A stretch of 64,000 nucleotides of DNA from an uncultured Candidatus Saccharibacteria bacterium (lineage in GTDB: Bacteria > Patescibacteriota > Minisyncoccia > Phycocordibacterales > GCA-2401445), in the NCBI GenBank assembly GCA_964436015.1, contig CAYTAR010000002.1:9521-73520 (forward strand), given 5' to 3'. The notes below the pieces were generated by a model. The model was not told the origin of the DNA, ran no database searches, and saw only the letters and a list, made by a program, of their open reading frames with translations. Position numbers and translations under genes: made by a program. Shown here piece by piece: positions 47,909 through 64,000 of this stretch (positions are counted from its first letter, which is position 1; the number at the start of each line of letters is the position of its first letter).

Positions 47909-48077
47909 ATTCTCCAAAGCATACCATAGCGTCCCTTTTTTGGTAAAGGAATAGTGTAATGCTATCCACATGGAAGACTGTCAAGATATAGGTAAGGGGA
48001 TACAATAGATATATCGACCCCCGAGGTTCGGTATTTGTCGTATCTCGACCCTCGAGATATGGCTTAAATAAAGAAAA

Positions 48078-48506
48078 ATGAAAAAAATGTCAGACAGATT
48101 CATAACACTCAAGGAAGCTGGTGAATTATCAGGATACAGTTCGGACTATATTGGTCAATTAATCCGAAAAGGAAAACTTCCAGGACAGCAGGTGTATTCA
48201 AACGTTGCCTGGGTAACGACACCTGAAGCTGTGCTTGAGTATATGGAGGGGAGTAAGAGAAAAACACAGAGAAACTCGGAAGATCTGTTATTGCGCATAT
48301 TGAGGGGTGCATACATGTGCGCACTCTGGTTAGTTATTGTGATAGGAGGAATGTTCAGTTTATTTCTGTTTTACATGACATCAGTAAGTATTGATGCACG
48401 ACTCCAGTCTGCTATTCAAACAGAAGTTGAAGAACGTATCGTTACTGAGTTTGCCCAAGATACGAATGAGCGTTTTGTTTCATTTTCTTCACACATATTG
48501 CAGTAA
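48078..48506 (+). CDS. membrane-tethered helix-turn-helix protein
   Basis: An excisionase/MerR-type HTH, FITLKEAGELSGYSSDYIGQLIRKGKLPG, followed by TM helix MCALWLVIVIGGMFSLFLFYM. Confidence 0.6.
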   Translation: MKKMSDRFITLKEAGELSGYSSDYIGQLIRKGKLPGQQVYSNVAWVTTPEAVLEYMEGSKRKTQRNSEDLLLRILRGAYMCALWLVIVIGGMFSLFLFYMTSVSIDARLQSAIQTEVEERIVTEFAQDTNERFVSFSSHILQ

Positions 48507-50447
48507 ATGATAATCGATAGACCAAAACAGCTGAAAACAGTAGAAGATGCTCTCACTATAAATATGAGAAGTTTTTCGGTGTATCGCATATTAAGTAATT
48601 CATTCAGAACAAGTTTTATGTATCGCGGGCTCGGGAGTCTTTTACTACTCTCGGTGTTAGCTCCCTCAGTGATTCCCGTTTTTGTATATGCTGACGAGAT
48701 ACCAGTAGCTACAGTAAGCACTTCAACCAAAGAGTCTATCGTGCAAGTGGACGTAGATCCTGTTGCTAAGGTTGATTCAAAAGCAGAAGAAACCATCGTT
48801 CCTGTAGATGATTCAGATGAAGGGGGTGTTGAGGAAAATGTGTCAGAAGAGAGTGGTGTTGAGATTAATGATTCTAGTATAGAACATGAGGAGATAGAAG
48901 AAGGTGATGTTAAGGAAAGTGTAATAGAGGAAGAAATCCAGCTGATAGAAATTGCAAGCTCAACGTTGTCTGTTGAGGATGTAAGTGCTACTAGTACCCC
49001 CGCAACCTCAACTCCAATAATAATGAATGAGGAGTCTCAAGTTGGTACTACTACAGTTAGTACTTCCACAACAACACTCGTAGCGAGTACAACAAAAAAT
49101 GAAATAGAAATTTCAGAGGATGAGGGAGTGGCAACAAGTTCTAATAAACTTACGGAAGAAGGTAATACTGCGGGCGCGAGCGGAACAAGCTCGCCCATGT
49201 TAACTGTTGATCCGGCAGACCTTATACCTCCTGATATTACTATTGTTGGCAATAACCCGGCGTTTGTGGCTGTTGGTGTGCAGTATGTTGATCAAGGAGT
49301 CCTTGTAAATGACAACAAAAGCAATAACTTGGGCCACACAATTCGTGTAAATGGTATAGAGGTTGATACGGTAACGCTTGATACAAGTACCACCAGTGAA
49401 TACGCAATAACTTATGTGGCGGTAGATCAAGATGGAAATACAGCAGTGGCAGTCCGAACGGTATTTGTTGGTATCGCAGAAAGTAGTATAGGGGAAGGCG
49501 TGTTAATGGAAAATGGTGTTGCGGGAGGAAGGGCTTCTTCAACTACAGATACCGTTGATGTGGTTTTTGAAGAAAACCATGATTTTGTACCCCAACAAAA
49601 TATTGAGTTTAATCTTTTGAATAAACATGTGTTTTCTGAATCTGATTGTGTGGTAGTGGGGAACGGTGAGTTTTACTGCGTAACCTCTGAGGATGCAAGA
49701 ACAAAGACAACAAACAACACTTCTCCAGTAGTGTTTGCAAAAAAATCAGACCAAGGGAATAAAGAAATATATTTCAATAATGGAGAATCACTTGTACAGA
49801 TCACTAACAATGACTTTGATGATGATCGACCCGTGTATGATGCAATTACTGGTATCATTGTGTGGCAATCACTCCGAGGCGATCGTTTGCAAATAGTATC
49901 CTACAATACCGTAACGGGAGTTGAGGTGGAGATTACTAATACTCCATATAACAACAGCAACCCTCATGTGCAGGGAACGACTGTGGTGTGGCAAGGGTGG
50001 GTAAATAATAACTGGGAAATATTTGTTGCTGATGCGACACGGAAAGCAGAAGACACTCTAGAGCCGGTAACGCGTAATGTGTGGAACGATATGTTTCCAC
50101 AGGTAAAGGGAGATATTGTCACCTGGCAGTCACGAGTAAATGATGCATGGAAAGTGTTTATCTATGATATCCGTACGAAAGAAATATCCGAGGTGGCTGT
50201 TCCTGCTGGGGGAAGTATTGAGAATCCCCGATTCGTTATTTTAGTTGAAAACAGACTTACGAATGGTGATGTAGAGACTTATGGGTATGACATTACTACG
50301 AAAGAAACATTTCCACTTGGTGCAGAGCGAAGGGCTACGCAAGAGATTCCAGAAAATCCGGCACAAACGGAGCCAACCGTGCTTCCTGTGGTGCAGGAGG
50401 TTAGAGCTCCGAAAGACGATGAGGGTGGAGTAGATGATACATTATGA
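48507..50447 (+). CDS. surface protein: acidic linker, Ig-like (DUF5011-like) domain, beta-propeller-like repeats
   Basis: Signal anchor LGSLLLLSVLAPSVIPVFVYA. PPDITIVGNNPAFVAVGVQYVDQGV..YAITYVAVDQDGNTA. Repeated xVWQ blades (IVWQSLRGDRLQIV, VVWQGWVNNNWEIF, IVTWQSRVNDAWKVF). The start may be internal (48564 or 48618). Confidence 0.7.
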   Translation: MIIDRPKQLKTVEDALTINMRSFSVYRILSNSFRTSFMYRGLGSLLLLSVLAPSVIPVFVYADEIPVATVSTSTKESIVQVDVDPVAKVDSKAEETIVPVDDSDEGGVEENVSEESGVEINDSSIEHEEIEEGDVKESVIEEEIQLIEIASSTLSVEDVSATSTPATSTPIIMNEESQVGTTTVSTSTTTLVASTTKNEIEISEDEGVATSSNKLTEEGNTAGASGTSSPMLTVDPADLIPPDITIVGNNPAFVAVGVQYVDQGVLVNDNKSNNLGHTIRVNGIEVDTVTLDTSTTSEYAITYVAVDQDGNTAVAVRTVFVGIAESSIGEGVLMENGVAGGRASSTTDTVDVVFEENHDFVPQQNIEFNLLNKHVFSESDCVVVGNGEFYCVTSEDARTKTTNNTSPVVFAKKSDQGNKEIYFNNGESLVQITNNDFDDDRPVYDAITGIIVWQSLRGDRLQIVSYNTVTGVEVEITNTPYNNSNPHVQGTTVVWQGWVNNNWEIFVADATRKAEDTLEPVTRNVWNDMFPQVKGDIVTWQSRVNDAWKVFIYDIRTKEISEVAVPAGGSIENPRFVILVENRLTNGDVETYGYDITTKETFPLGAERRATQEIPENPAQTEPTVLPVVQEVRAPKDDEGGVDDTL

Positions 50448-53400
50448 CCCTACGCGCATTGAGAAGAATTTGGGTGAATAAAAAAAAATGGGGAGCACGC
50501 ACGGTGGCGGTTTTTATTGTGTTCACTTTTTTGTTTTCTGATATCTCACAGTTTATTCGTATACCATGGGGTACTATTTTCAGAGCTGAAGCTGCACCTG
50601 TTTTGATTGAGGATACACTCACCATAGTAGATGACTCCATGTTGAATACTTCACCCACAACCGTTTTTATCAGTGATACGGTTGGGTATACTTTTTTTGT
50701 AGATAATGGAAATGCGTGTAGGTATGCCTCAACAACAGATGCGGGGGCTACATGGAGTCTGGCATACACCGTTGACTCGGTTAATACGACAGATTGTTTT
50801 CGTGTCGCGGTGTGGTATGACCAATGGACTCCTGGAGATGATACCGGTACGGTGATACATATTGCAACTCTCGATACGGGCGATGATGATATTTTCTATA
50901 CATCACTTAATACCGTAACTAATCAACTTTCCACAACAGTGATCGCGACAAATCAGGCGGGTACATTTGCTGCGGGTACTAACTATCATTCAATTACGAA
51001 AGGTGGTGATGGAAACTTGTACATGGCTGCAAATGATGCATCGGACAGTTGGATAGTTCGGTGTACGGGCACCTGTACGAGTGCGGGTAATTGGTCAGAA
51101 ATTGCTAATCCGTACGAATTACAGAATGATTGGCCACTTCTTGTGCCGCTTTTGAATGGAAACATAATGACCATACGAATGGATTTATCAGGAAATGATT
51201 ATGACTATAACATTTGGAATGGTTCTATATGGAGTGGATGGACAACTATCTTAACAACCGCGGGTGAGAATGCAACTTTTGATGCTCATTTTGGGGCAAC
51301 GATAGATAAGAGAACAGGGGATGTGTACTTTGTTGGGGTAACTGATAATGCGACGTTGGGAACCGATGACGATATTCGTACCGCATACTACAACCACCAT
51401 AACGGTACGTGGAGTGTGATGGGTAATGTGCTTACTAATGATACAAAAGGTATACGAGACGCTAAAATATTTTTTGACCAGAATTCTGGAGATGTGTATG
51501 TTACCTATTCCGCACTCACCACTCCAAATAGTGCGACAACTGGTAATGTGTACTATAAATATTCAACTGACGGTATGGTTTCGTGGAGCAGTGAGGTACA
51601 GGTAAATACCGTCTCAGGCAACTTGTTTGGTGCGGGACACAATAACTTAATGAGTACTGAGCGTGCATATGTTACATGGAAAAACATATCGGGCGATGAT
51701 TTGTTTGGAGAGACTGTAGTTAATCTTTCTCCGCCTGCGCTTGAGCAGTACTCATATCGATGGTACGAATCTGCGACAAGTACTGCTCCAGGTGCACCTC
51801 TTGCAAATGCAAACACGACCGCAACGTCAACAGAGAGGGGTACGCCATTTCGTCTCCGTATCGCTCTCGATATAGACGATTCAAAAATTGCTTCCAGTTC
51901 TCTCTCTTTTAAACTTCAATATGCAGAGCGGAGTGGGATTTGCGATATTTCTTTTACCGGGGAAACGTACACTGATGTTCTTACTTCAAGTGGGGCAGTG
52001 AGATTTTATGATAATACTGGTGTTGCCTCTGGGGTACAAGCGACGGTGTCTGCGAACGAACCTATTCCGAGTGAAGGTTCTTTTTCTTACCAGTCATATA
52101 TTGAAGGTGGGACATTTACTAATACGTATGGAAGTATCGCAACGAGTAGCGACGGCCTATGGGATTTTTCTTTAATCGATATTTCTTCACCTGAAGAAAC
52201 CCGGTACTGCTTCAGAGTGGTGTATGCGGACGGTAGCACGCTTGAATCATACTCTGTAATTCCTGAACTTATTACCCCATCGCGTCCACCAATTGTTACT
52301 CAGGCGCATTTTCATTTCAGAAATGATAACGGAGGAGAGGATGATGCAACGTCAGCTACAGGAGGGGTTGAGGATACAAATCTTTTTGGTGTATTTCCAA
52401 CCACCACAATACGTATGCGTATTGGAGTTGAAAATAGAGGGTTAAGCACATCAAGTCCAATTCAGTATCGTCTTGAGTACGCGGAAAAAGGCGCGAGTTG
52501 TGAAGTAAGTACAGGCTGGACTGATGTTGGAAGTTCTGGAGGAGCTTTCAATATGAATCCAATTGCAAACTTAACAGAGGGAGGAGATACTACAGATATT
52601 GCGATTGCGTTAGGAGGTGTGAGTACTAATGAATCTTATTTCGTAAGTCCAAACGGTGGTGTTCGAGATACAAATTCACAGACCAGTGCCATAACGCTTG
52701 GTCCTGATGAGTATACTGACCTTGAGTATTCAATTACCGCGACAGGTGACTCAAATGAGGGAACAACATACTGTTTTAGGATAACCGATGCAGGGTCGGT
52801 GATTGATAGTTATAGTGTGTATCCACAGATAACTATGGCTGCTTCAGTAGAAGTATCAACTATCGGTAGTCAGGTGACATCAGTCAATGCAGGAACTAAT
52901 AATTTTTATGTGGGTGGAGCTTTTGTGATAACTGATGGAATAGGAGGGCATTCTGTTACGAGTATTACCATTGCCGAACAGGGAACCGTAGATGCTGGAA
53001 GTAATATAGAAAACATACGCTTATACTACGATCTTGATACGACATTTCCATATGATTGTAGTAGTGAGTCATATGGGGGAGGTGAGTTGCAGTATGGCGC
53101 CACAAGTACCAGTTTTTCCTCCGCAGATGGGACCGCAACTTTTAATGGGTCAGTAGGCATCGATACTGATCAGTCATTATGTTTGTATGTAGTGCTTGAT
53201 ATTGCGAGTGGAGCGAGTGACGGCGAGACTCTTGAAATAGAAATTCCAAATGCAAGTACTGATGTTGTGGTAAGTGATAATCCATCAATTTCACCAACTA
53301 CCTTTGTTCGTTTAGCGGATACAACAACCATAAATAGCTCTGTATTAGATATGACTCATTTCCATTTTAGAAATAATGACGGAGGGGAGGGTGATGCAAC

Positions 53401-56400
53401 GTCAGCTACAGGAGGAGTTGAGGATACGCCGGTGACTGATTTGAGAAAAAACACACCAATACGTCTAAGGTTGCAGGTCGCTAATAGCGGAGGAGTGGGG
53501 GCATCTTCCTTGGCACTTCGTCTTGAGTATGGGGTGAAGGTGAGTTCGTGTAGCGCGGTTTCTGTATGGCAAGATGTCGGTGCCACTGAGGGGGATTGGG
53601 ACATGTATGATTCAACATTTCTTACTGATGGAGACAATACTACGGATATCGTACTTGGTATTGGTGGGGTGAGTAATGAGGGGGTAGATTTTCTTGATGT
53701 GAATGGTGGGGTAAAGGATACTTCCTCTCAAACTGCTCCATTTACGTTGGCTCCAAATGAGTATGTAGAACTTGAGTATTCAGTGTTCGCAACTGCTAGT
53801 TCAACAGCAGAGGGTGAATACTGTTTTCGGGTAACGAACCAAGGCACTCCACTTAATGTGTATTCAGTGTATGCAGAAGTAAGTATTGCTCCAAATCAAG
53901 ATTTTTTCATACAACGCGGTTTTGAGATTGTGAGTGGTACCAGTACTATTTTATACGCGGGAATAGATTACACTCCGCCACGGTTGGGTGGTCGTGCGTT
54001 TGTACGTATCACTAATACGCATCACACAGGCGCAGGGGACGATGATGGGGGAGGAACTCAGAATGCTGATGATGTAACCGCGTACATACTGAATCCTCAG
54101 GATATCGCTACCAGTATTACCATTGCGCGACCAGCGGCAGCGACAATAAATACTGGAGTAGCGTGGGAAATAGTTGAGTATCAAGGCTACCCAGGTGGAG
54201 GTAATGAAATGGTCGTACGCGAACAGGGAAATATATCCATGACAGGTTTATTTGCTACCACATCACCAATAAGTGGGGTGAGTAGCGACAGTGATGTAGT
54301 CGTGTTTATTACTGGAGCAATGACTCCTGATACTGGTACCGCTGATTACAATATGATGCAGGCAGTATCATCGTGGGATGTTCAAAGTCAGAGTGCGGTG
54401 TTTGAGCGAGGTGAGTCAGGAGACACTATCACTCTCAGTTATGCGGTGGTTGAATTTACTGGAAGACATTGGCGTGTGCAACGAGTTGCGCATAATTACT
54501 CGTCTGCTGTTGGCGCAGAGACGGAGACAATACCCTCTTCACTTAACAGTGTTTCTCGTGCATTTTTGCATACTCAGAAACTTGCTGGTGTGGGTGAGCA
54601 GGGCCTGGACGAATTTGGGCATACGGTTTGGATTTCTGGGGTTAATGAAATTTCATTTCAATTACAAAGCGGTGTAACCACACCAACCGCACACCGCTCG
54701 GTTGCATGGGTGATTGAGAATACGCAAGTTAATGGAACTCCAATGAATGTAATACAGTCAAGCGGTACTCAAAGTGGAGGAGCGGAGCCCAGCGTTGCAT
54801 CAATTGATATTGGCACTACGGTGGTTAGTATGGATACAACTTCTGTATTTACTAATTCTCGAGTGAATGGCACAAATACTGCATTCCCAAGACCGATACT
54901 CGCCGTGTATTTAATTTCCCGTACACAGTATCAATTTTGGATTAGTGATACAGGTGGGACGGTAACCTATCAAACTGAGGTGGTTGAGTGGCCAACTGCG
55001 CCAAGAAAGATAACCCAAAACTATTACCGAATATACGTGAATCAAGACACACTACTTCCGTCTGATGTGTGGCCGCAAGGAGCATCATCAATCGGGGAAA
55101 ATACAGTACTTTCACTCAATGATGTGCCTATTGATAGTGGAGATGTTATTCGTATACGTATGTCGGTGTTGGTTGAACAGGGGAATTTACCGGTGAACTA
55201 TCAATCATTTCGTTTGCAGTTTGGTGAACGCGAAACAACATGTTCCGCGGTAAGTGTGTGGCGCGATGTAGGACAAGTGGGAAGCACAACTGCATTATGG
55301 CGCGGATACAATAACGGCAGCGTCACAGATGGGGCAACGCTCTCAAGCGATCCTCCAAATGGAGGAGATTTGGTACTATCAGTTTCTGATAGAGCTGGTA
55401 CGTATGAGGAGTCAAATAATTCCGCGGTGAATCCATTTCCGGTATTCGCGGGAGAAGATGTTGAGTATGATTGGGTTGTTGAAAATAATGGAGCTTTGGA
55501 ATTGACACCGTACTGTTTCCGTATGGTTGAAGCAAATGGTTTGATGCTTGATGACTACGCTTACCACCCAACAGTATTTACCGCTGGGTATGAGGCGGTG
55601 AGCGAAGACTGGCGTTGGTTTGATGATGCTGAAAATGAGACTCCTCTATCAGCTCTTTCTCCAGAAAATTCTGCACCTATTGGAGTAGACTATGATACTA
55701 CCGTACAGTTGAGAGTGTTACTACATGAAATTGCAGGAAAAACTGGACCTCAATTAAAACTCCGTCTTCAGTTTGATGAGTCGGCAAGTTTTACCAATCC
55801 GCAGTTCGTCTCGAATGCGCTTGATTGTGCAGAAGGACTATCTCTCTGGTGTTATGCAGACGGTGGAGGAGTTGATAATGCAACCATAACGACCGCAGTT
55901 TTGACCAATGCAGATTCGTGCGTATCTGAAGTTGGTGATGGATGCGGAACGCACAATGAGCTTGCTACAACGAGTAGTTTATTTACTCATCAACCCAATG
56001 CAAACACAGAGTTTGCGTTTACCATTCGACATGTAGGAGCGCGTGCGAATACAGTCTATTTCTTCAGGATATATGATGTAACCAATGATAGATATGTGAG
56101 TGCAAGCACTACAAAAACGTACCCAAGCTTAGTTACTGAGGGCGCTGGACTTACGTTTACATTAAGTGGTGTTTCTTCGGGTGTAATAACTGAAGGTATC
56201 ACCACTGATAATGCAACAACTCCATACCATATTTCATTTGGCACGCTTCCTTTAAATACGGAGGTTGAAGTGGCGCAACGCCTCACCGTCACCACTAACG
56301 CAACCGAAGGATACCAAGTATTTATGTTTGCAAGGCAAGGATTGTTGTATGATACGGAAGAAATTACTCCAATTACTTCACTTAACTCAAACCCTTTGGG

Positions 56401-56665
56401 GTGGTCTCTTGGGTGCGATACTGGTTCTGTAACTGGTTGTTTCGGATATCATACAGGAGACGATACTCTTGCAGGTGGGTCGGTTAGATTTTCAGCAGAC
56501 GATACGTACGCTCGTTTGACTACGTCACCCCAGGAGATTATTTACAGCTCGCGTCCGGTTATAAACGAATCAACTGACGTGATCTTTAAAACGTGGGTAA
56601 ATGCAGATCAGCCTGGAGGGCTTTATGAGAGTAGTGTGGTGTATATTATTGTCCCTGTATTTTAA
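50444..56665 (+). CDS. giant surface protein (2073 aa): BNR/sialidase-like N-domain, five ~180-aa repeat modules, WxL-like C-terminal domain
   Basis: N-terminal TM/signal helix VAVFIVFTFLF. BNR-like STTDAGATWS and YSTDGMVSWS. Five modules each end in YCFR/YFFR. The last 170 aa are homologous to the C-terminal half of the 59565 and 60943 proteins. Confidence 0.85.
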   Translation: MTLRALRRIWVNKKKWGARTVAVFIVFTFLFSDISQFIRIPWGTIFRAEAAPVLIEDTLTIVDDSMLNTSPTTVFISDTVGYTFFVDNGNACRYASTTDAGATWSLAYTVDSVNTTDCFRVAVWYDQWTPGDDTGTVIHIATLDTGDDDIFYTSLNTVTNQLSTTVIATNQAGTFAAGTNYHSITKGGDGNLYMAANDASDSWIVRCTGTCTSAGNWSEIANPYELQNDWPLLVPLLNGNIMTIRMDLSGNDYDYNIWNGSIWSGWTTILTTAGENATFDAHFGATIDKRTGDVYFVGVTDNATLGTDDDIRTAYYNHHNGTWSVMGNVLTNDTKGIRDAKIFFDQNSGDVYVTYSALTTPNSATTGNVYYKYSTDGMVSWSSEVQVNTVSGNLFGAGHNNLMSTERAYVTWKNISGDDLFGETVVNLSPPALEQYSYRWYESATSTAPGAPLANANTTATSTERGTPFRLRIALDIDDSKIASSSLSFKLQYAERSGICDISFTGETYTDVLTSSGAVRFYDNTGVASGVQATVSANEPIPSEGSFSYQSYIEGGTFTNTYGSIATSSDGLWDFSLIDISSPEETRYCFRVVYADGSTLESYSVIPELITPSRPPIVTQAHFHFRNDNGGEDDATSATGGVEDTNLFGVFPTTTIRMRIGVENRGLSTSSPIQYRLEYAEKGASCEVSTGWTDVGSSGGAFNMNPIANLTEGGDTTDIAIALGGVSTNESYFVSPNGGVRDTNSQTSAITLGPDEYTDLEYSITATGDSNEGTTYCFRITDAGSVIDSYSVYPQITMAASVEVSTIGSQVTSVNAGTNNFYVGGAFVITDGIGGHSVTSITIAEQGTVDAGSNIENIRLYYDLDTTFPYDCSSESYGGGELQYGATSTSFSSADGTATFNGSVGIDTDQSLCLYVVLDIASGASDGETLEIEIPNASTDVVVSDNPSISPTTFVRLADTTTINSSVLDMTHFHFRNNDGGEGDATSATGGVEDTPVTDLRKNTPIRLRLQVANSGGVGASSLALRLEYGVKVSSCSAVSVWQDVGATEGDWDMYDSTFLTDGDNTTDIVLGIGGVSNEGVDFLDVNGGVKDTSSQTAPFTLAPNEYVELEYSVFATASSTAEGEYCFRVTNQGTPLNVYSVYAEVSIAPNQDFFIQRGFEIVSGTSTILYAGIDYTPPRLGGRAFVRITNTHHTGAGDDDGGGTQNADDVTAYILNPQDIATSITIARPAAATINTGVAWEIVEYQGYPGGGNEMVVREQGNISMTGLFATTSPISGVSSDSDVVVFITGAMTPDTGTADYNMMQAVSSWDVQSQSAVFERGESGDTITLSYAVVEFTGRHWRVQRVAHNYSSAVGAETETIPSSLNSVSRAFLHTQKLAGVGEQGLDEFGHTVWISGVNEISFQLQSGVTTPTAHRSVAWVIENTQVNGTPMNVIQSSGTQSGGAEPSVASIDIGTTVVSMDTTSVFTNSRVNGTNTAFPRPILAVYLISRTQYQFWISDTGGTVTYQTEVVEWPTAPRKITQNYYRIYVNQDTLLPSDVWPQGASSIGENTVLSLNDVPIDSGDVIRIRMSVLVEQGNLPVNYQSFRLQFGERETTCSAVSVWRDVGQVGSTTALWRGYNNGSVTDGATLSSDPPNGGDLVLSVSDRAGTYEESNNSAVNPFPVFAGEDVEYDWVVENNGALELTPYCFRMVEANGLMLDDYAYHPTVFTAGYEAVSEDWRWFDDAENETPLSALSPENSAPIGVDYDTTVQLRVLLHEIAGKTGPQLKLRLQFDESASFTNPQFVSNALDCAEGLSLWCYADGGGVDNATITTAVLTNADSCVSEVGDGCGTHNELATTSSLFTHQPNANTEFAFTIRHVGARANTVYFFRIYDVTNDRYVSASTTKTYPSLVTEGAGLTFTLSGVSSGVITEGITTDNATTPYHISFGTLPLNTEVEVAQRLTVTTNATEGYQVFMFARQGLLYDTEEITPITSLNSNPLGWSLGCDTGSVTGCFGYHTGDDTLAGGSVRFSADDTYARLTTSPQEIIYSSRPVINESTDVIFKTWVNADQPGGLYESSVVYIIVPVF

Positions 56666-56673
56666 TACTATAT

Positions 56674-57690
56674 ATGTCTATTTGGTATACTAGAGGTATG
56701 AGATTATTTGTTCTAGGATTCATATGTTTTGTGAGTGCATTTTTTATTACGCCAGAAATTGCATTTGCAAAGTACATACAAGTATCACCTATTGTAATAA
56801 ATAAAGATTTGCAAGCTCGTGATATTATCCGTGAACAAGTGGTACTGAAGAACACCTCTCCTGCAAAGTTAAATGTGTATACATTTGTTAACAATGTTAC
56901 TTCTGGAACGGAGGGGGGTATTGAGGCATTTCTTGATTATCAACAATCAGAAAAACAAAAGTCGTTGGCAAACTGGATTGAGATTTCACGCGGAGTGATT
57001 GAATTGATGCCAGGAGAAGAAAAAGAAATTGAATTTATTATTAAAGTGCACCATGAGGCTACTCCAGGCGATTATCATGCATTGATTTCTTTCGGAACTG
57101 GAACCAATAGAGATGAGGCTGAACAGCGCCTTACACGAGAGTCATCGGTGATGGTTGTTGGGTCAGTAGTGAAAAATACAAGAGAGCTCCTTCAGGTGAA
57201 AAAATTTACCGCGGGGAATTTATTTTTTTCAGGAACTGATGCGGAGTTCACATACACCCTTCAGAATAATGGTGATGAGGTAATTATCCCTGATGGAGAA
57301 ATCTTGCTTTATGATAGGCGTGGAATTGAGATTGGTGCAATGCGCGTTAACGGACAGGGAGAGAGTATCTTGCCAGGGGAAGAAAAGGAGTTTGTTTCAA
57401 CATGGAGCGGTGAATATAGTCTCGGTCGGCACAAGGCGTACTTGAGTGCAGTGTATGGTGCACAGAAGAAAAACTTGACTGATACCACCTACTTTTTTAT
57501 GTTGCCATGGAAGCAGTTATTACTGTTGTTTACTGTACTTATGTTCTTTACGGTGTATGTTATGCATGTGATTCACGATAAATTTTTTCAAAAGAGAAAA
57601 AAACAGGTTCAATTCAACCGTGTATCTCGTCCAGTAACGCCTCCGGTCCCAGGGGTTGGTGTGATTAATCTCAAACAATATGAGGATTAA
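56674..57690 (+). CDS. CscA-like surface protein (DUF916/DUF3324-like Ig domains + C-terminal TM anchor)
   Basis: Signal peptide. YIQVSPIVINKDLQARDIIREQVVLKNTS..WIEISRGVIELMPGEEKEIEFIIKVHHEATPGDYHALISF. A second Ig-like domain. C-terminal TM helix LLLLFTVLMFFTVYVMHVI followed by a KR-rich tail. Confidence 0.6.
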   Translation: MSIWYTRGMRLFVLGFICFVSAFFITPEIAFAKYIQVSPIVINKDLQARDIIREQVVLKNTSPAKLNVYTFVNNVTSGTEGGIEAFLDYQQSEKQKSLANWIEISRGVIELMPGEEKEIEFIIKVHHEATPGDYHALISFGTGTNRDEAEQRLTRESSVMVVGSVVKNTRELLQVKKFTAGNLFFSGTDAEFTYTLQNNGDEVIIPDGEILLYDRRGIEIGAMRVNGQGESILPGEEKEFVSTWSGEYSLGRHKAYLSAVYGAQKKNLTDTTYFFMLPWKQLLLLFTVLMFFTVYVMHVIHDKFFQKRKKQVQFNRVSRPVTPPVPGVGVINLKQYED

Positions 57691-59365
57691 GTCGGCACAC
57701 AACAGTTGGTTTATAAGGGTAGGAATTGTATTAGTTTTAGTGTGTAGTATTGGATTTTTTTCTTCTTACACGCACGCCCAGGCACCCGCGTCGCTCTCAT
57801 TAAGTGTCACCCCTCCTTTGTTCCAACTCACTACTGCTCCAGGAGAGTATTGGGCGAGCAGTATAAAAGTCATCAATGCCAATTCATATCCATTAACCAT
57901 TGTTGCTGAAGTGGTTAGGTTTGATGCGAGTGGGGAAAGTGGTAATGCTAAATTTTTACCTGTACTTGGCACAGAAGGTGAAGGTAGCACACTTGCGGAT
58001 TGGATTACTCTAGAAGAAATTGAGTTAACTATTCCACCTGAGCAAAGTGCGGTAGTTCCATTTTCAGTACGTATACCACAGGACGCTCCTCCAGGAGGGC
58101 ACTATGCGGCGATACTCATTGGGAATAAATCTGTAAAAGAAGCGGGAGCAGGTCCGCAAGTCGGAGTGTCATCTTTTGTCTCCTCTTTGTTATTTGTTCG
58201 TATTGCGGGTGATGTTGTTGAAACAGGTTCTATTAGAGAATTTTCAGCAGATTCTCTTTTTTATCAAAAGCCAGAAACTTCTTTTTCATTACGGTTTGAA
58301 AATACAGGGAATGTTCACTTGTTGCCACAAGGTGAAATCACCATTTACAACATGTGGGGAAAGGAGAGAGGAGTAATTCCGATAAATCAAAAAACAGATT
58401 TTGGAAACGTACTTCCTCGGTCCATACGAAAATTTGATTTTACTTGGGCGGGGGAGCAAAATCCTCTTGAAGTAGGAAGGTTTTCAGCTGTAGCGATTCT
58501 TACCTATGGGCAGGAGGAAAGAAAAAGTGTGTATGCAAATACGTACTTTTGGGTGATACCCGTGATACCGGTGCTGATTGTCCTCGCTTCAATTTTTGGA
58601 ATTATTGTTTTTGTATCATGGATGGTTAAGTTGTATATCAGACGCGCTCTTGAGCTCCGAGGTATATACATGAATCCTGATGATTTTTTGTCTCCACATA
58701 TGAACACGTCAAAGGTGGATATGAAGATGCTGGTAAACCCTGTTGTGGAAGGAGTTATGGATTTACGTTCAGCTACTTTTCGTGATTCTCTTAGACATAA
58801 GAAAGATATTGTAGAGCCTGCCTCTATGACATATAAAGATTTCTTTAAGAAGTACAAGCGTTTCTTTGTGAGTGTGGCAGGACTCACAATGGTTGTGTTT
58901 ATTTTTATGTTTTTCTTTACTCACGTTCTCGTTCCCGAGCGTGCATTTGATATTACCTTGAATAAGGAAGATGGTGAGGTATCTATTAGTTCGGAGGAGC
59001 TCATTAAGGATAAGCTAGATGAGCAGAATAATTATTTTAATTCAAGTCAAGAAGAGGTTTCTTCTAATATTGCTTCTGGCGAGGTTCAAAGGATTACTAT
59101 TGAATTATTAAATAACACGGGAATTCCAGGCAGGGGTGCTGAGATTGCAGTACTACTTGAACAGAATGGATACAGGATTCAGAAGGTCGGTAATAGTAAT
59201 GAAGAAATGGAAGAAAATCGGGTGTACGGTAATTTTACTGATCCACTTATTGTAGAAGTCATTCAAGATGTTGAAAATATTACCGATAAAGTTTTTACGC
59301 AGATTGATTCAGGGTACACTCAAGGTCAAGCAACAAACACTCTTGTTTTTATTATTTCAAAGTAG
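57680..59365 (+). CDS. CscA-like surface protein with TM anchor and a C-terminal LytR_C-like domain
   Basis: SLSVTPPLFQLTTAPGEYWASSIKVINAN..WITLEEIELTIPPEQSAVVPFSVRIPQDAPPGGHYAAILIG. TM helix VIPVLIVLASIFGIIVFVSWMV. C-terminal RITIELLNNTGIPGRGAEIAVLLEQNGYRIQKVGN. Confidence 0.6.
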   Translation: MRIKSAHNSWFIRVGIVLVLVCSIGFFSSYTHAQAPASLSLSVTPPLFQLTTAPGEYWASSIKVINANSYPLTIVAEVVRFDASGESGNAKFLPVLGTEGEGSTLADWITLEEIELTIPPEQSAVVPFSVRIPQDAPPGGHYAAILIGNKSVKEAGAGPQVGVSSFVSSLLFVRIAGDVVETGSIREFSADSLFYQKPETSFSLRFENTGNVHLLPQGEITIYNMWGKERGVIPINQKTDFGNVLPRSIRKFDFTWAGEQNPLEVGRFSAVAILTYGQEERKSVYANTYFWVIPVIPVLIVLASIFGIIVFVSWMVKLYIRRALELRGIYMNPDDFLSPHMNTSKVDMKMLVNPVVEGVMDLRSATFRDSLRHKKDIVEPASMTYKDFFKKYKRFFVSVAGLTMVVFIFMFFFTHVLVPERAFDITLNKEDGEVSISSEELIKDKLDEQNNYFNSSQEEVSSNIASGEVQRITIELLNNTGIPGRGAEIAVLLEQNGYRIQKVGNSNEEMEENRVYGNFTDPLIVEVIQDVENITDKVFTQIDSGYTQGQATNTLVFIISK

Positions 59366-59564
59366 GCTATCCACAAATAGTAGGGAGGGCATTTTAAAAT
59401 ATCAACTATAATTACAGTAAGGACCATGTCCTTTTCACCGCTTGGTGAATCGTGCCAGGATGTGTGTCCTATGACGTCGTAGGATAGAGAGGAATTTTTC
59501 CTCGGTATCTTATATTATCAGTAGGTAGTAGTGCCACCTACCGCTAGTTCTTAGAAAGCATTAT

Positions 59565-60704
59565 ATGAATAGCACATACGTATTTGAGCACATCAAGACC
59601 CATAAGTATCTAGCACTCATTGTGTTAGCGGGACTCTTAATGTGGTCAGTCGGCTTGCCTGCGTGGGCACCCATGGCGCAAGCAGCAGCACTCACCAACT
59701 TCAGTGATACACTCACTGATTCGGACGTGAGTGCACCATCTAATCACACGATTGCCTATACGACACCAAACGGTGTCTCGGCAGGAGAGACGATTGTGAT
59801 TACGTTTCCTGCAGGGTTTAACTTAAGTGATTTGTCGTTTAACGACATTGACTTATATGCAGGATCGGAACGAACACTTGGGTCTTCACCTTCAGGTGCA
59901 ACGTGGGGGGTTGCGACAACGTCAACCACTATTACGTTCACTTCAGGAACAGACACTATTGCGTCAAGTACTGCAGTCGTGATTGAGATAGGTACACATG
60001 CAACAGCTGGTGCAACGGGGGATACACAGATTATTAATCCAGGGTCACCTGGCACGCAAATTATCAACGTGTCATCGGGATCAGGAATTGATTCTGCGGA
60101 TACCCGCGTCTACATCATTGATGATGTTGTGGTCACTGCTTCAGTTAACACCACCTTCCTCTTCTCCATCACTGGAGTAGCGAGTGGTGCATCAGTTAAC
60201 GGAAGTCCAACAACCACTGCAGATACAACCACATCAACATCGCTTCCGTTCGGAACACTTAACGCGCTTCAGTCAAAAACTCTTGCGCAAGATCTTTCAG
60301 TAACCACTAACGCAGCAAACGGCTTCGTAGTAACAGTACAGCAAGATCAAAATCTTCGTTCCGCAACGAATGCAGATATTGATGGGTTCATTGATGGGGC
60401 GTATACAAACACTCCAGCTGCATGGGTACAACCATCAGGGTCCCTTGGACAAGAGTGGACATACGGTCACTGGGGTTTAACATCAGAAGATGCTGATTTA
60501 AACACTGATGAATTCGGATCCGATTTGTGGGTTGCAGCGTCAACTACACCTCGGCAAGTCTTCTCACACAATGCACCGTCAAATGGTACAACACCAAACA
60601 GTGGTTCTACCCGAGTCGGTTTCCAGATTGAAATTACTTCACTTCAGGAAGCTGGTACGGACTACACGAACACACTGACGTACATTGCAACGCCGACGTT
60701 CTAG
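59565..60704 (+). CDS. secreted protein with a variable N-domain and a WxL-like C-terminal domain
   Basis: Signal peptide ending AQA. AALTNFSDTLTDSDV. The C-terminal half FLFSITGVASG..FGTL..LSVTTNAANGFVVTV..AGTDYTNTLTYIATPTF parallels the WxL-domain layout. Confidence 0.6.
   Translation: MNSTYVFEHIKTHKYLALIVLAGLLMWSVGLPAWAPMAQAAALTNFSDTLTDSDVSAPSNHTIAYTTPNGVSAGETIVITFPAGFNLSDLSFNDIDLYAGSERTLGSSPSGATWGVATTSTTITFTSGTDTIASSTAVVIEIGTHATAGATGDTQIINPGSPGTQIINVSSGSGIDSADTRVYIIDDVVVTASVNTTFLFSITGVASGASVNGSPTTTADTTTSTSLPFGTLNALQSKTLAQDLSVTTNAANGFVVTVQQDQNLRSATNADIDGFIDGAYTNTPAAWVQPSGSLGQEWTYGHWGLTSEDADLNTDEFGSDLWVAASTTPRQVFSHNAPSNGTTPNSGSTRVGFQIEITSLQEAGTDYTNTLTYIATPTF
60101..60704 (+). repeat. 604-bp exact direct repeat, copy 1 (copy 2 is 61491-62094)
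   Basis: A line-by-line comparison of both copies found no mismatch. Identity starts at TACCCGCGTCTACATC and ends at the TAG stop. Confidence 0.9.
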
Positions 60705-60721
60705 ACGTACTTAGAGCACGC

Positions 60722-60750
60722 AAAAATCCGCTGTAAAGCGGATTTTTGTT
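60722..60750 (+). terminator. intrinsic terminator
   Basis: AAAAATCCGC-TGTAAA-GCGGATTTTT. Confidence 0.75.
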
Positions 60751-60942
60751 TGTCTGAGACAGTGTGTCCTTGAAGTTAAGGTTGTCTTTTATGTTCGTTA
60801 TCCACAACCAGAAAAGAATTTTTGATAAAAGTCAATTATACTGTACATATTACTGGCGTGTGTCTTTTACACATAAGGTGAGTGGTTGTGAGACTGAGGG
60901 TCATCAGTAGCACATAGATTATCAAGTATATAGTTTATTAGT

Positions 60943-62094
60943 ATGAGTACATATTTTATTTTACACCATATGCGAGGAGGCAAGGCGGTAGGAGCAGTGC
61001 TCCTAATCGCGCTTCTTGCGTGGTCAGTCGGTGCGCCGGCATGGATGAATGTTGCACAAGCAGCAGCACTCACCAACTTCAGTGATACACTCACTGATTC
61101 TGATGTGGGGGCGTTAAGTAACCACACAATTGCGTTCACTACTCCAAATGGGGTTGATGCAGGACAGACTATTACTGTTACCTTCCCAGGAGGTTTTGGT
61201 CTTGGGTCTATAACTGAGGATGATGTTGACATTGATAGTGCAGGAACTCCGCTCACTACTGCAGCGGATTGTTCGGGAAGTGAGGAGGCTGGGGTTGGTA
61301 TTTCAGGACAAATTATTACGATTGATATTTGCTCCGGAGATGGAGGGGACATTGCGTCTTCTACTGCGGTGGTAATTAGAATTGGAACGAATGCGGTTGA
61401 TAGTGGAACAGGAACAAACCAAATTACAAACCACGCAACTCCAGGTACATATATTATTGCAGTTGGAGGGACAATGCAGGATTCAGGTTCTACCCGCGTC
61501 TACATCATTGATGATGTTGTGGTCACTGCTTCAGTTAACACCACCTTCCTCTTCTCCATCACTGGAGTAGCGAGTGGTGCATCAGTTAACGGAAGTCCAA
61601 CAACCACTGCAGATACAACCACATCAACATCGCTTCCGTTCGGAACACTTAACGCGCTTCAGTCAAAAACTCTTGCGCAAGATCTTTCAGTAACCACTAA
61701 CGCAGCAAACGGCTTCGTAGTAACAGTACAGCAAGATCAAAATCTTCGTTCCGCAACGAATGCAGATATTGATGGGTTCATTGATGGGGCGTATACAAAC
61801 ACTCCAGCTGCATGGGTACAACCATCAGGGTCCCTTGGACAAGAGTGGACATACGGTCACTGGGGTTTAACATCAGAAGATGCTGATTTAAACACTGATG
61901 AATTCGGATCCGATTTGTGGGTTGCAGCGTCAACTACACCTCGGCAAGTCTTCTCACACAATGCACCGTCAAATGGTACAACACCAAACAGTGGTTCTAC
62001 CCGAGTCGGTTTCCAGATTGAAATTACTTCACTTCAGGAAGCTGGTACGGACTACACGAACACACTGACGTACATTGCAACGCCGACGTTCTAG
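60943..62094 (+). CDS. secreted protein, a paralog of 59565 with a different N-domain and an identical WxL-like C-terminal domain
   Basis: Shares AAALTNFSDTLTDSDV after the signal peptide. The last 604 nt are identical to 60101-60704. Confidence 0.6.
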   Translation: MSTYFILHHMRGGKAVGAVLLIALLAWSVGAPAWMNVAQAAALTNFSDTLTDSDVGALSNHTIAFTTPNGVDAGQTITVTFPGGFGLGSITEDDVDIDSAGTPLTTAADCSGSEEAGVGISGQIITIDICSGDGGDIASSTAVVIRIGTNAVDSGTGTNQITNHATPGTYIIAVGGTMQDSGSTRVYIIDDVVVTASVNTTFLFSITGVASGASVNGSPTTTADTTTSTSLPFGTLNALQSKTLAQDLSVTTNAANGFVVTVQQDQNLRSATNADIDGFIDGAYTNTPAAWVQPSGSLGQEWTYGHWGLTSEDADLNTDEFGSDLWVAASTTPRQVFSHNAPSNGTTPNSGSTRVGFQIEITSLQEAGTDYTNTLTYIATPTF

Positions 62095-62119
62095 TGCGCT
62101 TATATACAAAACTATATAC

Positions 62120-62155
62120 AAGAATTACACCCGCGAATGCGGGTGTAATTCTTTT
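62120..62155 (+). terminator. intrinsic terminator
   Basis: AAGAATTACACCCGC-GAAT-GCGGGTGTAATTCTT followed by TT. Confidence 0.75.
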
Positions 62156-62209
62156 GCGAGGACTGAAGAGAGTGGTATTATTGATGTGTTACTAACCAAT
62201 ACTACGTTC

Positions 62210-63289
62210 ATGACATTTATACTACGAAACGATCGCACACTATTCAATATACTATTATTTTTTGTACTGAGTATTATTGGGCTTGCTTGCTTGCCCACTT
62301 CAGTGTTTGGGCAGTCAAGCTCAGGTATTAGAGTGCAGCCTTCGTTTATTGAAGAGGCGGTTAATCCGGGGGATACGTACAGTGAAATACTTCAGATAAA
62401 AAATGAGAGTGATGTTGAGGAAACATACTATGTAAGTGTGAGGAATATAAAAGGATTAACTGGTAATGATAATGCTCCAGTGTTTGCAGATGAAGGTGAA
62501 GTCACTGGGCTTGAAGTTGCTTCATGGGTTACTCTTTCAGCAGACAGTGCGACCGTTCTGCCTGGTGAAACCGCACAGATTCCTTTTAGTGTTGTGGTAC
62601 CGAAAGATGCGTCTCCGGGGAGTCATATAGGAGGAATATTTGTGACACGGACCCCTCCACGACTACGTGAGACTGGAGCAGGAGTGGGTATTCAAGTAGT
62701 CAGTATTCTTAGTATGAAAATAGGGGGAGATGTAATTGAAACTGCGCGTATCAGAGAGTTTTCTTCTGATAAAAACATATACAGTACCCCGAAAGCAGAA
62801 TTTACCGTAAGTGTAGAAAATGAGGGAAATATTCTGATTAGACCACAAGGGTTTATAGAAATAACTAATATGTTTGGCGAGCGGGTTGCTCAGCTTAAGA
62901 TTAATGAACGAGCAGGTGCGGTGTTACCAAAAGCGGAACGTAGATTTTCAGTGGAGTGGGAGGGGGATAGTCTCTCTTTTGGAAGATATCAAGTACATGC
63001 AGGTCTGGTGTTTGGAGATTATGGAAGACAGAATATTGAAAGTAATTTATTTATCTGGGTTCTTCCTATGAAAATTATCACGCCTTTTCTTGGCGGACTG
63101 CTTTTCCTTGTGTTTGTAATTTATATCAGTATTCGGATACATGTCAGAAATAAGTTACGTACTGTAGAGAGAACTCATGCACGATTTGTTCATGATGAGG
63201 CGCCGTTGTCAAAATTGACTTTCATTGCTGTCGCAGTACTTGCGTTTACAATTCTTTTCCTGCTAGGAGTGTTTATCTTTTTCGCATAA
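62210..63289 (+). CDS. CscA-like surface protein (third paralog) with C-terminal TM anchors
   Basis: The start MTFILRNDRTLFNILLFFVLSIIGLACLPTSVFG at 62210; the track start at 62075 lies upstream of a terminator. GIRVQPSFIEEAVNPGDTYSEILQIKNES..WVTLSADSATVLPGETAQIPFSVVVPKDASPGSHIGGIFV. Confidence 0.6.
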   Translation: MTFILRNDRTLFNILLFFVLSIIGLACLPTSVFGQSSSGIRVQPSFIEEAVNPGDTYSEILQIKNESDVEETYYVSVRNIKGLTGNDNAPVFADEGEVTGLEVASWVTLSADSATVLPGETAQIPFSVVVPKDASPGSHIGGIFVTRTPPRLRETGAGVGIQVVSILSMKIGGDVIETARIREFSSDKNIYSTPKAEFTVSVENEGNILIRPQGFIEITNMFGERVAQLKINERAGAVLPKAERRFSVEWEGDSLSFGRYQVHAGLVFGDYGRQNIESNLFIWVLPMKIITPFLGGLLFLVFVIYISIRIHVRNKLRTVERTHARFVHDEAPLSKLTFIAVAVLAFTILFLLGVFIFFA

Positions 63290-63290
63290 A

Positions 63291-63692
63291 ATGAGACGAA
63301 AGAGTAACAAAATAGAACATAATATCAGGTATGCACTAGCGATTGGAGCGACCGTGCTGTCGCTTACCTCCCTTGTGTATCGGGTTGATACAAGCATGCC
63401 AGGAGCGTCTACTTTGGTGGGAAATGTAGTTGGTGTTACTGCTCAGATTCCCCCGAATGAATTAAGTAGACTCGCACAACAGTTTGATGAAAAAGATAAG
63501 GAATTGAGTGCTCGCGAAGCTGAAATTGCGGATCGTGAGCGAGCGCTCAATGCACTACTTCGTAAAGGGAATGAGAGGGGTGTGATTGCAAATTATGCTT
63601 TTGCGGGTGCGCTTCTTCTTCTCTTTATTCTTGTAGGAATTAATTTCTACCAAGATTGGAAAGGAAGAAAAATTCCTAGACAGAGTGTATGA
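63291..63692 (+). CDS. small membrane protein with a coiled-coil segment
   Basis: 133 aa. An N-terminal TM helix, LSRLAQQFDEKDKELSAREAEIADRERALNALL, and a C-terminal TM helix. Confidence 0.5.
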   Translation: MRRKSNKIEHNIRYALAIGATVLSLTSLVYRVDTSMPGASTLVGNVVGVTAQIPPNELSRLAQQFDEKDKELSAREAEIADRERALNALLRKGNERGVIANYAFAGALLLLFILVGINFYQDWKGRKIPRQSV

Positions 63693-64000
63693 GGGCCTTT
63701 GGTATAACTCTGGTGGTGATAATTGCATCAGTGGTAGTCACAAGTCTTGTAGTGCGTGCCACCGAGTATGTATCTAGCAGAGGATTAACCGCGAACGTGC
63801 ATTCAATTAGCACTATGTGCAAGCGTGGTATGACCTATGTACCAACAGAGCAGGGAGGGTTTTGCATTGATATATTCGAGCGGTCAGCTGGTTCTCGTTG
63901 TGTGTATGATACTCCTGAAAATAGTATTCAAACGGGACAAAATATTCAGATTATGGAATGTGAAAGTGAGTCTGTAAGGGGACGTATTCCATGGGTAAAT
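63689..64000 (+). CDS. membrane-anchored protein, possibly SUMF1/FGE-type domain; 3' end lies outside the window
   Basis: ATGA start/stop overlap with the previous gene. The frame is open to nt 64000. TM helix FGITLVVIIASVVVTSLVV, then CKRGMTYVPTEQGGFCIDIFE. The family call is weak. Confidence 0.4.
   Translation, partial: MRAFGITLVVIIASVVVTSLVVRATEYVSSRGLTANVHSISTMCKRGMTYVPTEQGGFCIDIFERSAGSRCVYDTPENSIQTGQNIQIMECESESVRGRIPWVN

Follow-up and report, generated by a model that had tools for sequence, protein, structure and literature searches.

A Paceibacteria-type gene cluster that probably encodes a divergent, usher-less Pam-type pilus with WxLIP-like membrane-anchored helpers

Bacteria of the candidate phyla radiation (CPR, or Patescibacteria) account for a large part of all bacterial diversity. 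They live for the most part attached to host cells, and their attachment machinery is barely known. Here we analyse a cluster of surface-protein genes from such a bacterium. It occupies positions 48078-64000 of a 64,000-nucleotide stretch (the window; contig CAYTAR010000002.1, positions 9,521 to 73,520) from an uncultured Candidatus Saccharibacteria bacterium. Two described systems come closest to this cluster. The first is the Pam pilus. Cryo-electron microscopy of filaments of Ca. Mycosynbacter amalyticus, a parasite belonging to the Saccharimonadia, identified the pilins PamA and PamB, with a glycan-like density (a sugar-like modification) on Ser356 of PamA (bioRxiv 10.64898/2026.03.03.709456). 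The pam operon further encodes FimC/PapD-like chaperones with a C-terminal transmembrane (TM) helix (PamC and PamD), the linker-less tip pilin PamT, the minor pilin PamE and the RbmA-like, TM-anchored tether PamR; the assembly pathway is a proposal based on AlphaFold3 (10.64898/2026.03.03.709456). The second are the WxL/WxLIP clusters (CscA-type, DUF916-DUF3324-TM) of Lactobacillales, Enterococcus and Listeria (PMC1534035, PMC10599100; PDB 9i25, 9i1y). The Pam preprint mentions neither WxL, DUF916 nor Paceibacteria (10.64898/2026.03.03.709456). A preliminary description of the window held that no such system had been described in this lineage, a statement overtaken by the same preprint on CPR Pam pili.

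We consider it probable that the cluster encodes an usher-less, chaperone-assisted pilus of the Pam type that assembles by donor-strand exchange, in a divergent Paceibacteria-type version in which a giant protein serves as the tip adhesin and the two shaft pilins can replace each other. It consists of ten co-directional open reading frames (ORFs) with short gaps or overlaps, all on the + strand. Their products are 142, 646, 2073, 338, 561, 379, 383, 359 and 133 amino acids (aa) long, followed by a last ORF that is truncated. All ORFs of the preliminary description are found where it had placed them.

The reading rests first of all on a C-terminal domain (CTD) of about 190 aa. A search with a hidden Markov model (HMM) finds exactly three carriers of this domain in the whole 64-kb window: two proteins of about 380 aa, which we call pilin A (379 aa, 59565-60704) and pilin B (383 aa, 60943-62094), and a giant protein of 2073 aa (50444-56665). 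The last ~200 residues of the giant protein align end to end with the pilin CTD at 30% identity and have the same invariant positions, which bears out the earlier claim that the three proteins have this domain in common. The sole NCBIfam match of both pilins is NF058581 (CPR_Pam_pilin_C, Pam pilus system pilin subunit), a model derived from the 2026 Pam preprint (10.64898/2026.03.03.709456). Pilin A matches it with 18.8 bits (E 1.4e-3) and pilin B with 20.4 bits (E 4.3e-4). At E<=0.01 the model also recognises 26 of 46 close and 38 of 48 divergent relatives (64/94 in total, best E 1.5e-10), and one of these matches spans profile positions 7-148 of 148. Judged from these profile matches, the CTD is a divergent branch of the CPR Pam pilin C-terminal family; the homology holds at the superfamily level and does not amount to curated-level membership.

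The architecture of the pilins agrees with the one that cryo-electron microscopy revealed in PamA and PamB. The AlphaFold2 (AF2) model of pilin A, with a predicted local distance difference test score (pLDDT) of 85.6, shows a signal helix, nine strands at residues 44-184 and a nine-strand CTD at residues 198-379, corresponding to an N-terminal sandwich at 59688-60104 and a CTD at 60156-60701. Residues 185-197, between the two domains, have no secondary structure in the model, yet they are conserved. This linker, the putative donor strand (60105-60155), displays alternating invariant residues (V-x-I-x-D-x-V-x-V-T-A-x-V), and its mean conservation is 0.78, against 0.75 for the CTD and 0.64 for the N-terminal domain. 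It resembles a strand that would be buried only in the assembled state. The pilins have a mass of about 39 kDa, as have PamB and PamE (38.7 kDa), and their C-terminus (...TYIATPTF) lacks a hydrophobic tail. More than 1,700 pilin homologs exist, all of them hypothetical where named.

A second line of evidence is the way in which the two pilin genes differ. Pilin A and pilin B are 77% identical overall and their N-terminal domains have diverged, while at the 3' end the two genes have 604 nt of DNA with 100% identity (61491-62094 equals 60101-60704), from the start of the linker through the stop codon. In the closest relative (locus L006), the two pilins likewise have CTDs that are more alike within than between genomes. 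Since the same pattern recurs in a second genome, it points to gene conversion rather than to an assembly artefact. An identical linker and CTD next to diverged N-terminal domains would mean that the polymerisation module is kept uniform and that the exposed domain can change freely, as would suit two subunits built into a single filament. PamA and PamB are reported to co-assemble in this way.

Both pilin genes are also followed by hairpins. An intrinsic-terminator-like hairpin with a U-run lies 3' of pilin A at 60720-60752 (+ strand; 13-bp stem, folding free energy -22.4 kcal/mol, z -6.9), and none of 200 shuffled sequences folds as well. The terminator-like hairpin 3' of pilin B at 62120-62157 has a 15-bp stem followed by U residues, in a region with a z of -4.3. 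A terminator after the gene of a major subunit is the usual arrangement where that subunit is made in excess over accessory proteins, and the two hairpins fit a high output of pilin relative to the accessory genes. A scan of the region for consensus promoters gave no more than the shuffle level and missed both terminator hairpins. Each pilin gene is preceded by an intergenic region of 200-240 nt, in contrast to the overlapping genes of the cluster, where the start and stop codons of consecutive genes overlap at 50444-50447, 57680-57690 and 63689-63692 (ATGA-type or 11 nt). Such overlaps suggest translational coupling.

The giant protein differs from the pilins in one telling respect. It is made up of an N-terminal signal or anchor, a weak BNR-like region (E 0.016), five repeats of about 175 aa (51746-52267, 52301-52834, 53351-53884, 55016-55573 and 55601-56128) and the CTD (56066-56662), which directly abuts repeat 5. 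The repeats carry an invariant Y(C/F)FR motif and pairs of cysteines about 90 aa apart. The linker TRVxIIDDVxVTA, which all shaft-type carriers of the CTD retain, is absent from the giant protein and from its positional equivalents in four related loci (L006, L063, L027 and L074). The shortest equivalents, in L027 and L074, have 437 aa and one repeat, the one in L006 exceeds 1,694 aa, and the class has its own C-terminal ending, (I/V)VYI(V/A)(V/T)P(V/I)F. To put this into perspective, we surveyed the best 150 of 1,557 representative clusters (50% identity) that bear the CTD; 149 of them were examined and 138 are complete. The CTD reaches the last residue in all but one of the best 150. Two-domain pilins of 300-450 aa account for 123 of the 138 complete carriers, and carriers of 457-1,022 aa retain the end of the pilin N-terminal domain together with the linker TRVAIIDDVxVTA. 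A protein that has the CTD and lacks the linker could accept a strand and could not donate one, so that it would fit only at the distal end of a filament. Hence, we infer that the giant protein is best read as a tip adhesin, that is, as an acceptor-only subunit.

CTD representatives of 219-250 aa looked like possible counterparts of PamT, but most of them are fragments that lack the 5' end of the gene, P0386 being the one complete CTD protein without a linker. The larger CTD carriers (protein set A6) have varied N-terminal domains, among them an LVIVD propeller, Laminin_G_3, a Listeria-Bacteroides repeat and Y_Y_Y; one carrier in this set matches the NCBIfam model 'TafC family fimbrial protein' (E 4e-11).

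The candidates for chaperones of the pilus are three anchored helper proteins of 338 aa (56674-57690), 561 aa (57680-59365) and 359 aa (62210-63289; the ATG at 62210 is the start of the deposited protein, P0121). A family HMM finds exactly three such paralogs in the whole window. That they are homologous to each other, as proposed earlier, is confirmed by pairwise E values from 8e-24 to 2e-48 (56674 versus 57680, 8e-24; 57680 versus 62075/62210, 2e-48; 56674 versus 62075/62210, 4e-25). Hydropathy also agrees with the membrane topologies of the preliminary description. All three have a signal. The 338-aa helper has one TM helix at residues 274-292 and a basic tail; the 561-aa helper has TM helices at 292-310 and 395-413 and then a predicted extracytoplasmic LytR_C domain, which Pfam places above its cut-off (26.6 bits, E 1.2e-5); the 359-aa helper has two C-terminal TM helices.

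Our analyses of sequence profiles and models agree that these paralogs are divergent homologs of WxLIP (DUF916-DUF3324-TM), the membrane-anchored component of the WxL clusters. In Pfam, the domain WxLIP_PGBD (PF06030, formerly DUF916) is matched by the 338-aa helper with an E of 0.0016 (family HMM E 1.7e-82) and by the 561-aa helper with an E of 0.028. The scores of the window helpers, 14.9-20.4 bits, lie under the gathering score of 27.3 bits. Across the family the signal is consistent: PF06030 is matched by 48 of 51 members (best E 2.1e-7), and one helper relative is already named "DUF916 domain-containing protein" at NCBI. When the profile of the helper family is compared with PDB sequences, EfmWxLIP1 is the sole significant match (E 1.6e-4). 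Alignment of the family by hhalign with genuine WxLIP sequences, which come from plasmids of Enterococcus, Lactiplantibacillus and Listeria that carry annotated WxL clusters, gives a probability of 95.9% and an E of 5.8e-9 over 240 columns and both immunoglobulin (Ig)-like domains. The structure prediction tells the same story. With the AF2 model of the 359-aa helper (pLDDT 88.7), the top Foldseek matches are the E. faecium WxLIP structures 9i25_C and 9i1y (E 2.8e-12), the alignment to 9i25_C covering both domains in 262 columns. Then follow the chaperones of chaperone-usher systems, CfaA, CsuC, DraB, Caf1M, CupB2, FimC and SafB, at E values of 1e-10 to 1e-8; RbmA is among the matches as well. 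In the models, it is only the fold of the helpers that resembles the classical PapD-family chaperones. The earlier suggestion of CscA/WxLIP-like paralogs is thereby upheld, with three qualifications: the scores of the window proteins are below the gathering score, PF11797 (DUF3324) is matched by 0 of the 51 family members in Pfam, and the WxLIP signature NQIDKxxxYFDLK, a pattern that fits two of three genuine WxLIPs, is absent from all 51 CPR members, the hhalign alignment having a gap at this very site. Likewise, no NCBIfam model of a Pam chaperone is matched by the helper family.

Relatives of the cluster show how the helpers may divide their labour. A pilin relative is encoded in 231 stretches of species-representative genomes, 79 of which we list as loci and use for gene order (co-occurrence was counted over 80 pilin loci). 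Among the 79 listed loci, every title that names a taxon names Patescibacteria, and a few say just 'bacterium'. The labels include Paceibacterota, Parcubacteria, Kaiserbacteria, Nomurabacteria, Minisyncoccia and some generic Saccharibacteria. By this sampling of sequences the pilin family is restricted to Patescibacteria. The module is thus common in CPR bacteria, as the preliminary description had named as a reason to give up its claim of novelty, though it is essentially unannotated rather than annotated.

A WxLIP-like helper gene co-occurs with the pilin in 68 of 80 loci. Two gene orders prevail. In type 1, the pilin is followed by a 359-type helper, the gene for p133 (the 133-aa protein of our cluster), two or three FGE-sulfatase-like genes and then genes for a dockerin protein, HSP20, a cohesin-like protein and a protein of about 5,600 aa. 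In type 2, a 338-type helper precedes the pilin, a p646-like gene (after our 646-aa protein) and a giant-like gene. Several sampled genomes carry both types, each in a place of its own. The window and L006, its closest relative (pilins 72% identical), have them merged in the order giant, 338, 561, pilin, pilin, 359, p133, FGE. The 359-type helper lies immediately downstream of the pilin in 44 loci. In merged loci the 338-type helper comes after the large CTD protein, in 21 type-2 loci it is found upstream of the pilin, and 561-type orthologs follow the 338-type gene in L006, L021, L027, L063 and L074. This gene order across genomes suggests dedicated helpers, the 359-type for the shaft pilins and the 338/561 pair for the tip subunit.

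Taken together, one can picture the following pathway. All components would be exported by Sec, and all display signal peptides. The ~380-aa proteins would form the shaft, the linker of one subunit filling the groove in the CTD of the previous subunit to yield a linear filament, by analogy with PamA and PamB. With their identical linker and CTD, the two pilins should be interchangeable in this filament. The 2073-aa protein would occupy the distal tip, where its propeller-like region and five repeats would act as the adhesin. The WxLIP-like helpers would be the membrane-anchored counterparts of PapD and FimC: when a subunit has just been secreted, a strand from the first domain of the helper may cap its CTD groove, to be displaced later by the linker of the next subunit. 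If capping is done by proteins anchored in the membrane, the filament could grow at the membrane without an usher. The 359-aa helper would serve the shaft pilins and the 338-aa/561-aa pair the tip subunit, one of the three helpers probably retaining the last subunit and tethering the filament. The LytR_C domain of the 561-aa helper is a candidate for the link to the cell envelope.

Several points weigh against this pathway. Polymerisation, chaperone capping and the tip position are all things that we infer. The assignment of the pilins to the Pam family relies on NF058581 matches that are consistent and yet sub-threshold: all scores lie below the curated cut-off of 55 bits, those of the window pilins far below it, which is the reason why we speak of a divergent branch. 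When the pilin and the alignments of pilins and CTDs were compared with PDB sequences, there was only noise and no Pam pilin (25PZ/25QA), and Foldseek with the pilin model returned no Pam pilin (25PZ/25QA) either. Our comparison with PamA to PamT and with PamC, PamD and PamR uses their descriptions rather than their sequences or structures. The chaperone mechanism in the Pam preprint, which is not peer-reviewed, is itself an AlphaFold3 prediction (10.64898/2026.03.03.709456). Finally, the neighbourhood differs from that reported for the pam operon: no ATP synthase gene lies near the cluster, whose neighbours are instead the genes for p133 and for FGE-like, dockerin-like and cohesin-like proteins.

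One could also argue that nothing polymerises at all. The preliminary description proposed one system that displays three cargo proteins, and in its static form each WxLIP-like protein would hold one CTD cargo (the giant protein, pilin A or pilin B) non-covalently, by a strand inserted into the CTD, much as in WxL/Csc-type display. The homology of the paralogs to WxLIP in sequence and structure speaks for this, as does the count of three anchors for three CTD carriers, a ratio of 1:1. In WxL systems, moreover, a WxLIP strand is predicted to complete the WxL sandwich, and a complex of WxLIP with a long WxL protein has been solved (9i25). The layout of the CTD had also been taken to suggest a WxL domain. 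Neither the window proteins nor the 48 divergent relatives match PF13731 (WxL) even at E<=1, and an HMM built from 65 genuine WxL proteins has no match in the window. A comparison by hhalign gives a probability of 0.7% with shallow profiles and of 11% (P 0.0027) with deep ones. The deep alignment is colinear over 114-178 columns and pairs PFG with FG, VTTNA..GF.VTV.Q with VTDNRGT..GW.L.V.Q, and DY..TLTYI.T with Y.TTLTW.LS, the CTD having F or Y in place of W at both WxL motif positions. Its score of 27.9 exceeds those of all 150 column-shuffled controls (maximum 21.0) and of the reversed control (14.2). An unrelated pair of profiles, however, WxL and the helper family (A2), reached 28.6 on a patch of 17 columns, and for this reason we hold homology of CTD and WxL to be unproven, the similarity being suggestive. 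The motif-by-motif colinearity noted earlier is thus reproduced, and the identity of the CTD as a WxL domain is not supported.

Other observations make static display harder to accept. The CTD matches the Pam pilin model and not the WxL model, and the homologs in M. amalyticus form filaments. The conserved, strand-like linker of the pilins would have no role, and the giant protein has no linker. Most loci have one WxLIP-like gene per pilin, and yet the terminators 3' of the pilin genes are strong signs of pilin over-expression. The WxLIP motif NQIDKxxxYFDLK occurs in 0 of 51 members. Of the earlier proposal, the relationship of the anchors to WxLIP therefore stands, and display of three static cargos fits less well than a polymerising pilus; we regard it as unlikely.

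Another option is that the ~380-aa proteins form a two-dimensional surface layer or matrix, or a cellulosome-like scaffold with the dockerin- and cohesin-like proteins encoded nearby. The family is very large and looks highly expressed, the N-terminal domain is YweA-like, and in related loci the dockerin- and cohesin-like genes are conserved just downstream, the dockerin protein having an N-terminus that resembles the N-terminal domain of the pilins. But the cluster proteins have no S-layer or SLH-type domains in Pfam or NCBIfam, the CTD is related to a domain that has been shown to build filaments, and subunits with one acceptor and one donor each should form linear chains rather than sheets. 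As for the cohesin and dockerin genes, the window does not contain them and type-2 loci lack them. We would be very surprised if a layer or scaffold were the answer. Sortase-type and classical chaperone-usher assembly are excluded, for no cluster protein has an LPXTG-like motif and Pfam finds neither a sortase domain in the cluster nor an usher or PapD-family match in any of its proteins.

The downstream genes of type-1 loci are of interest in their own right. In L006 (13851-16199), L004 (14010-21059) and L005 (14470-21155) they form a conserved set that encodes a protein of ~615 aa with a pilin-like N-terminal domain at its N-terminus and a type I dockerin, HSP20, a cohesin-like protein of ~510 aa and a DUF2341 protein of ~5,600 aa. 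The dockerin and cohesin-like genes possibly constitute a cohesin-dockerin pair in CPR bacteria, and by synteny the set probably lies just beyond the 3' end of the window. Two type-1 loci have a gene for a secreted CAP-domain protein (PF00188) directly upstream of the pilin (L004 4614-5750; L005 8465-9655). L005 also has a separate sortase and a SpaA/SdrD_B-type protein nearby; some genomes with type-1 loci may carry a second surface system, of the sortase type.

The remaining genes of the cluster encode candidate accessory proteins, all on the + strand. The cluster begins at 48078, because the genes upstream do not belong to it: the immediate neighbour is a nucleotidyl transferase gene on the opposite strand (47180-47971), and YceI, MscL and ZIP genes lie further upstream. 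Its first gene (48078-48506, 142 aa) encodes a candidate regulator with a helix-turn-helix (HTH) of the excisionase type (Pfam HTH_17, a weak match with an E of 0.0054) and hydrophobic segments at residues 71-103, a C-terminal membrane segment. The stop codon of this gene abuts the start of the next, and homologs of it adjoin p646-like or WxLIP-like genes in L009, L021 and L057. An HTH-domain gene also lies at the edge of a genuine WxL cluster, on an Enterococcus innesii plasmid (L001 8228-9688). A 2026 paper, which is said to mention WxL 86 times, reportedly describes an HTH-only c-di-AMP receptor that mediates the epithelial adhesion of L. plantarum.

The second gene (48507-50447) encodes the 646-aa surface protein p646, which is predicted to be secreted or anchored. 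It has an acidic low-complexity region, and the DUF5011-like Ig domain and propeller repeats of the preliminary description are recovered as Pfam Bact_surface_Ig-like (E 6.7e-10) and as the beta-propeller repeat TIGR04275 (E 1e-11). The HMM finds no CTD in p646. In about 25 related loci a p646-like gene stands directly upstream of a giant-like gene.

At the other end of the cluster, p133 (63291-63692) is a coiled-coil membrane protein with a TM helix at residues 99-117 and just a weak Pfam match to Metal_resist. It is a conserved accessory, following the 359-type helper gene in 42 related loci. The last ORF (63689-64000), cut by the end of the window, encodes a TM-anchored N-terminus that had been suspected to be SUMF1-like, and this is borne out by its orthologs in L004, L005 and L006, which carry the Pfam FGE-sulfatase domain (E 6.5e-10, 1.5e-14). 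There the FGE-like proteins are membrane-anchored and occur as two to three tandem paralogs after p133. In view of the sugar-like modification on Ser356 of PamA, it is conceivable that the FGE-like paralogs modify pilins; the canonical FGE target motif (C/S)xPxR does not occur in the pilins. Two FGE-like paralogs of L006 (12149-12973 and 12992-13846) have identical C-terminal ~130 aa, a second case of 3' homogenisation of tandem paralogs in this type of locus. Within the 561-aa ORF, ARAGORN calls a tRNA-Pyl (anticodon CTA) on the - strand (57968-58043), almost certainly a false positive.

What does the cluster add to what is known? The kind of system has been known since 2026, and the cluster is a divergent variant of it in a different CPR lineage, set apart by its class of tip, by its accessory genes and by a polymerisation module that evolves in concert. 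It extends the Pam pilus to Paceibacteria-type lineages, in which the pilin family comprises more than 1,500 clusters at 50% identity that are annotated as hypothetical. It also offers testable candidates for host recognition: an acceptor-only class of tip proteins with a variable number of repeats, from 437 aa to more than 2,000 aa; shaft pilins with a gene-converted, identical polymerisation module and a diverging exposed domain; and three specialised anchored helpers.

The homology between helpers and WxLIP connects a filament system of CPR bacteria with the adhesion and virulence clusters of the WxL type in Enterococcus, Listeria and lactobacilli, and it suggests that strand complementation by an anchored chaperone is a principle common to both. 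The WxLIP link of Pam-type helpers appears to be undescribed; our literature search found no paper that links WxL or WxLIP with chaperone-usher assembly or with CPR. We would go one step further, if only tentatively and at somewhat less than even chances. WxL/WxLIP (Csc) clusters and CPR Pam pili might be two branches of one ancient family of usher-less systems that use membrane-anchored chaperones and donor-strand complementation. The cluster would then be an intermediate form, because its helpers are still recognisable as DUF916/WxLIP while their clients are Pam-type pilins. If the CTD and WxL were homologous as well, the 'non-covalent anchoring' of WxL proteins would amount to a pilus of a single subunit, and the gain of a donor linker would be the main thing that sets pilins apart from WxL proteins.

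How close is the cluster to each of the known systems? From the sortase-assembled pili of Gram-positive bacteria it differs in having no LPXTG motif, no sortase and no sign of isopeptide chemistry. With chaperone-usher pili (Pap/Fim, Caf1, Csu, CFA/I) it has more in common: a PapD-like fold of the helper, donor-strand complementation and exchange (presumed here), a tip adhesin that ends in a pilin domain and has no donor strand, and a terminator after the gene of the major subunit. However, the cluster comes without an outer membrane or usher, its putative chaperones are membrane-anchored rather than soluble, its donor strand would be an internal linker between two domains rather than an N-terminal extension, and at the level of sequence there are no Pfam matches to PapD or fimbrial proteins.

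The WxL clusters are closer. The helpers are homologous to WxLIP over both Ig-like domains and have the C-terminal TM anchor in common with it. The logic is alike, too, with small clients, one large client that joins N-terminal binding domains to a common C-terminal domain, and an anchored helper, and in both cases the predicted mechanism is a helper strand that completes the C-terminal sandwich of the client. The giant protein, if it is a tip adhesin, would be the analogue of the "large WxL protein" of these clusters, just as it would be of PamT and of FimH/PapG. Yet the WxL model does not recognise the CTD, which has F/Y for W, and NQIDKxxxYFDLK is absent from the helpers. The donor linker of the clients implies polymerisation, the helpers are three paralogs that differ in their membrane tails, and the host belongs to the CPR and not to the Firmicutes.

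The Pam pilus is the closest match, even if the differences are considerable. With about 20 bits against the curated model, the CTD of the cluster represents a divergent subfamily, and the host lineage is Paceibacteria-like rather than Saccharimonadia or Microgenomatia. The proposed tip subunit is a multi-repeat protein of 2073 aa, whereas PamT has 25.6 kDa. The pilins have an identical linker and CTD, and one helper carries LytR_C. The neighbours are p133, an FGE-sulfatase-like gene and, in relatives, dockerin- and cohesin-like genes, whereas ATP synthase, CorB and MFS genes adjoin pam. What the two have in common is the plan of the whole. Both have Sec-exported, two-domain pilins, composed of a nine-strand N-terminal domain, a conserved linker and a C-terminal, incomplete Ig-like domain. 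In both, two major pilins of about 39 kDa are encoded together, along with a tip subunit that would only accept a strand. Both interleave the pilins with several proteins of two Ig-domains and C-terminal TM helices (PamC, PamD and PamR in the Pam system), and both do without an usher and are restricted to CPR bacteria.

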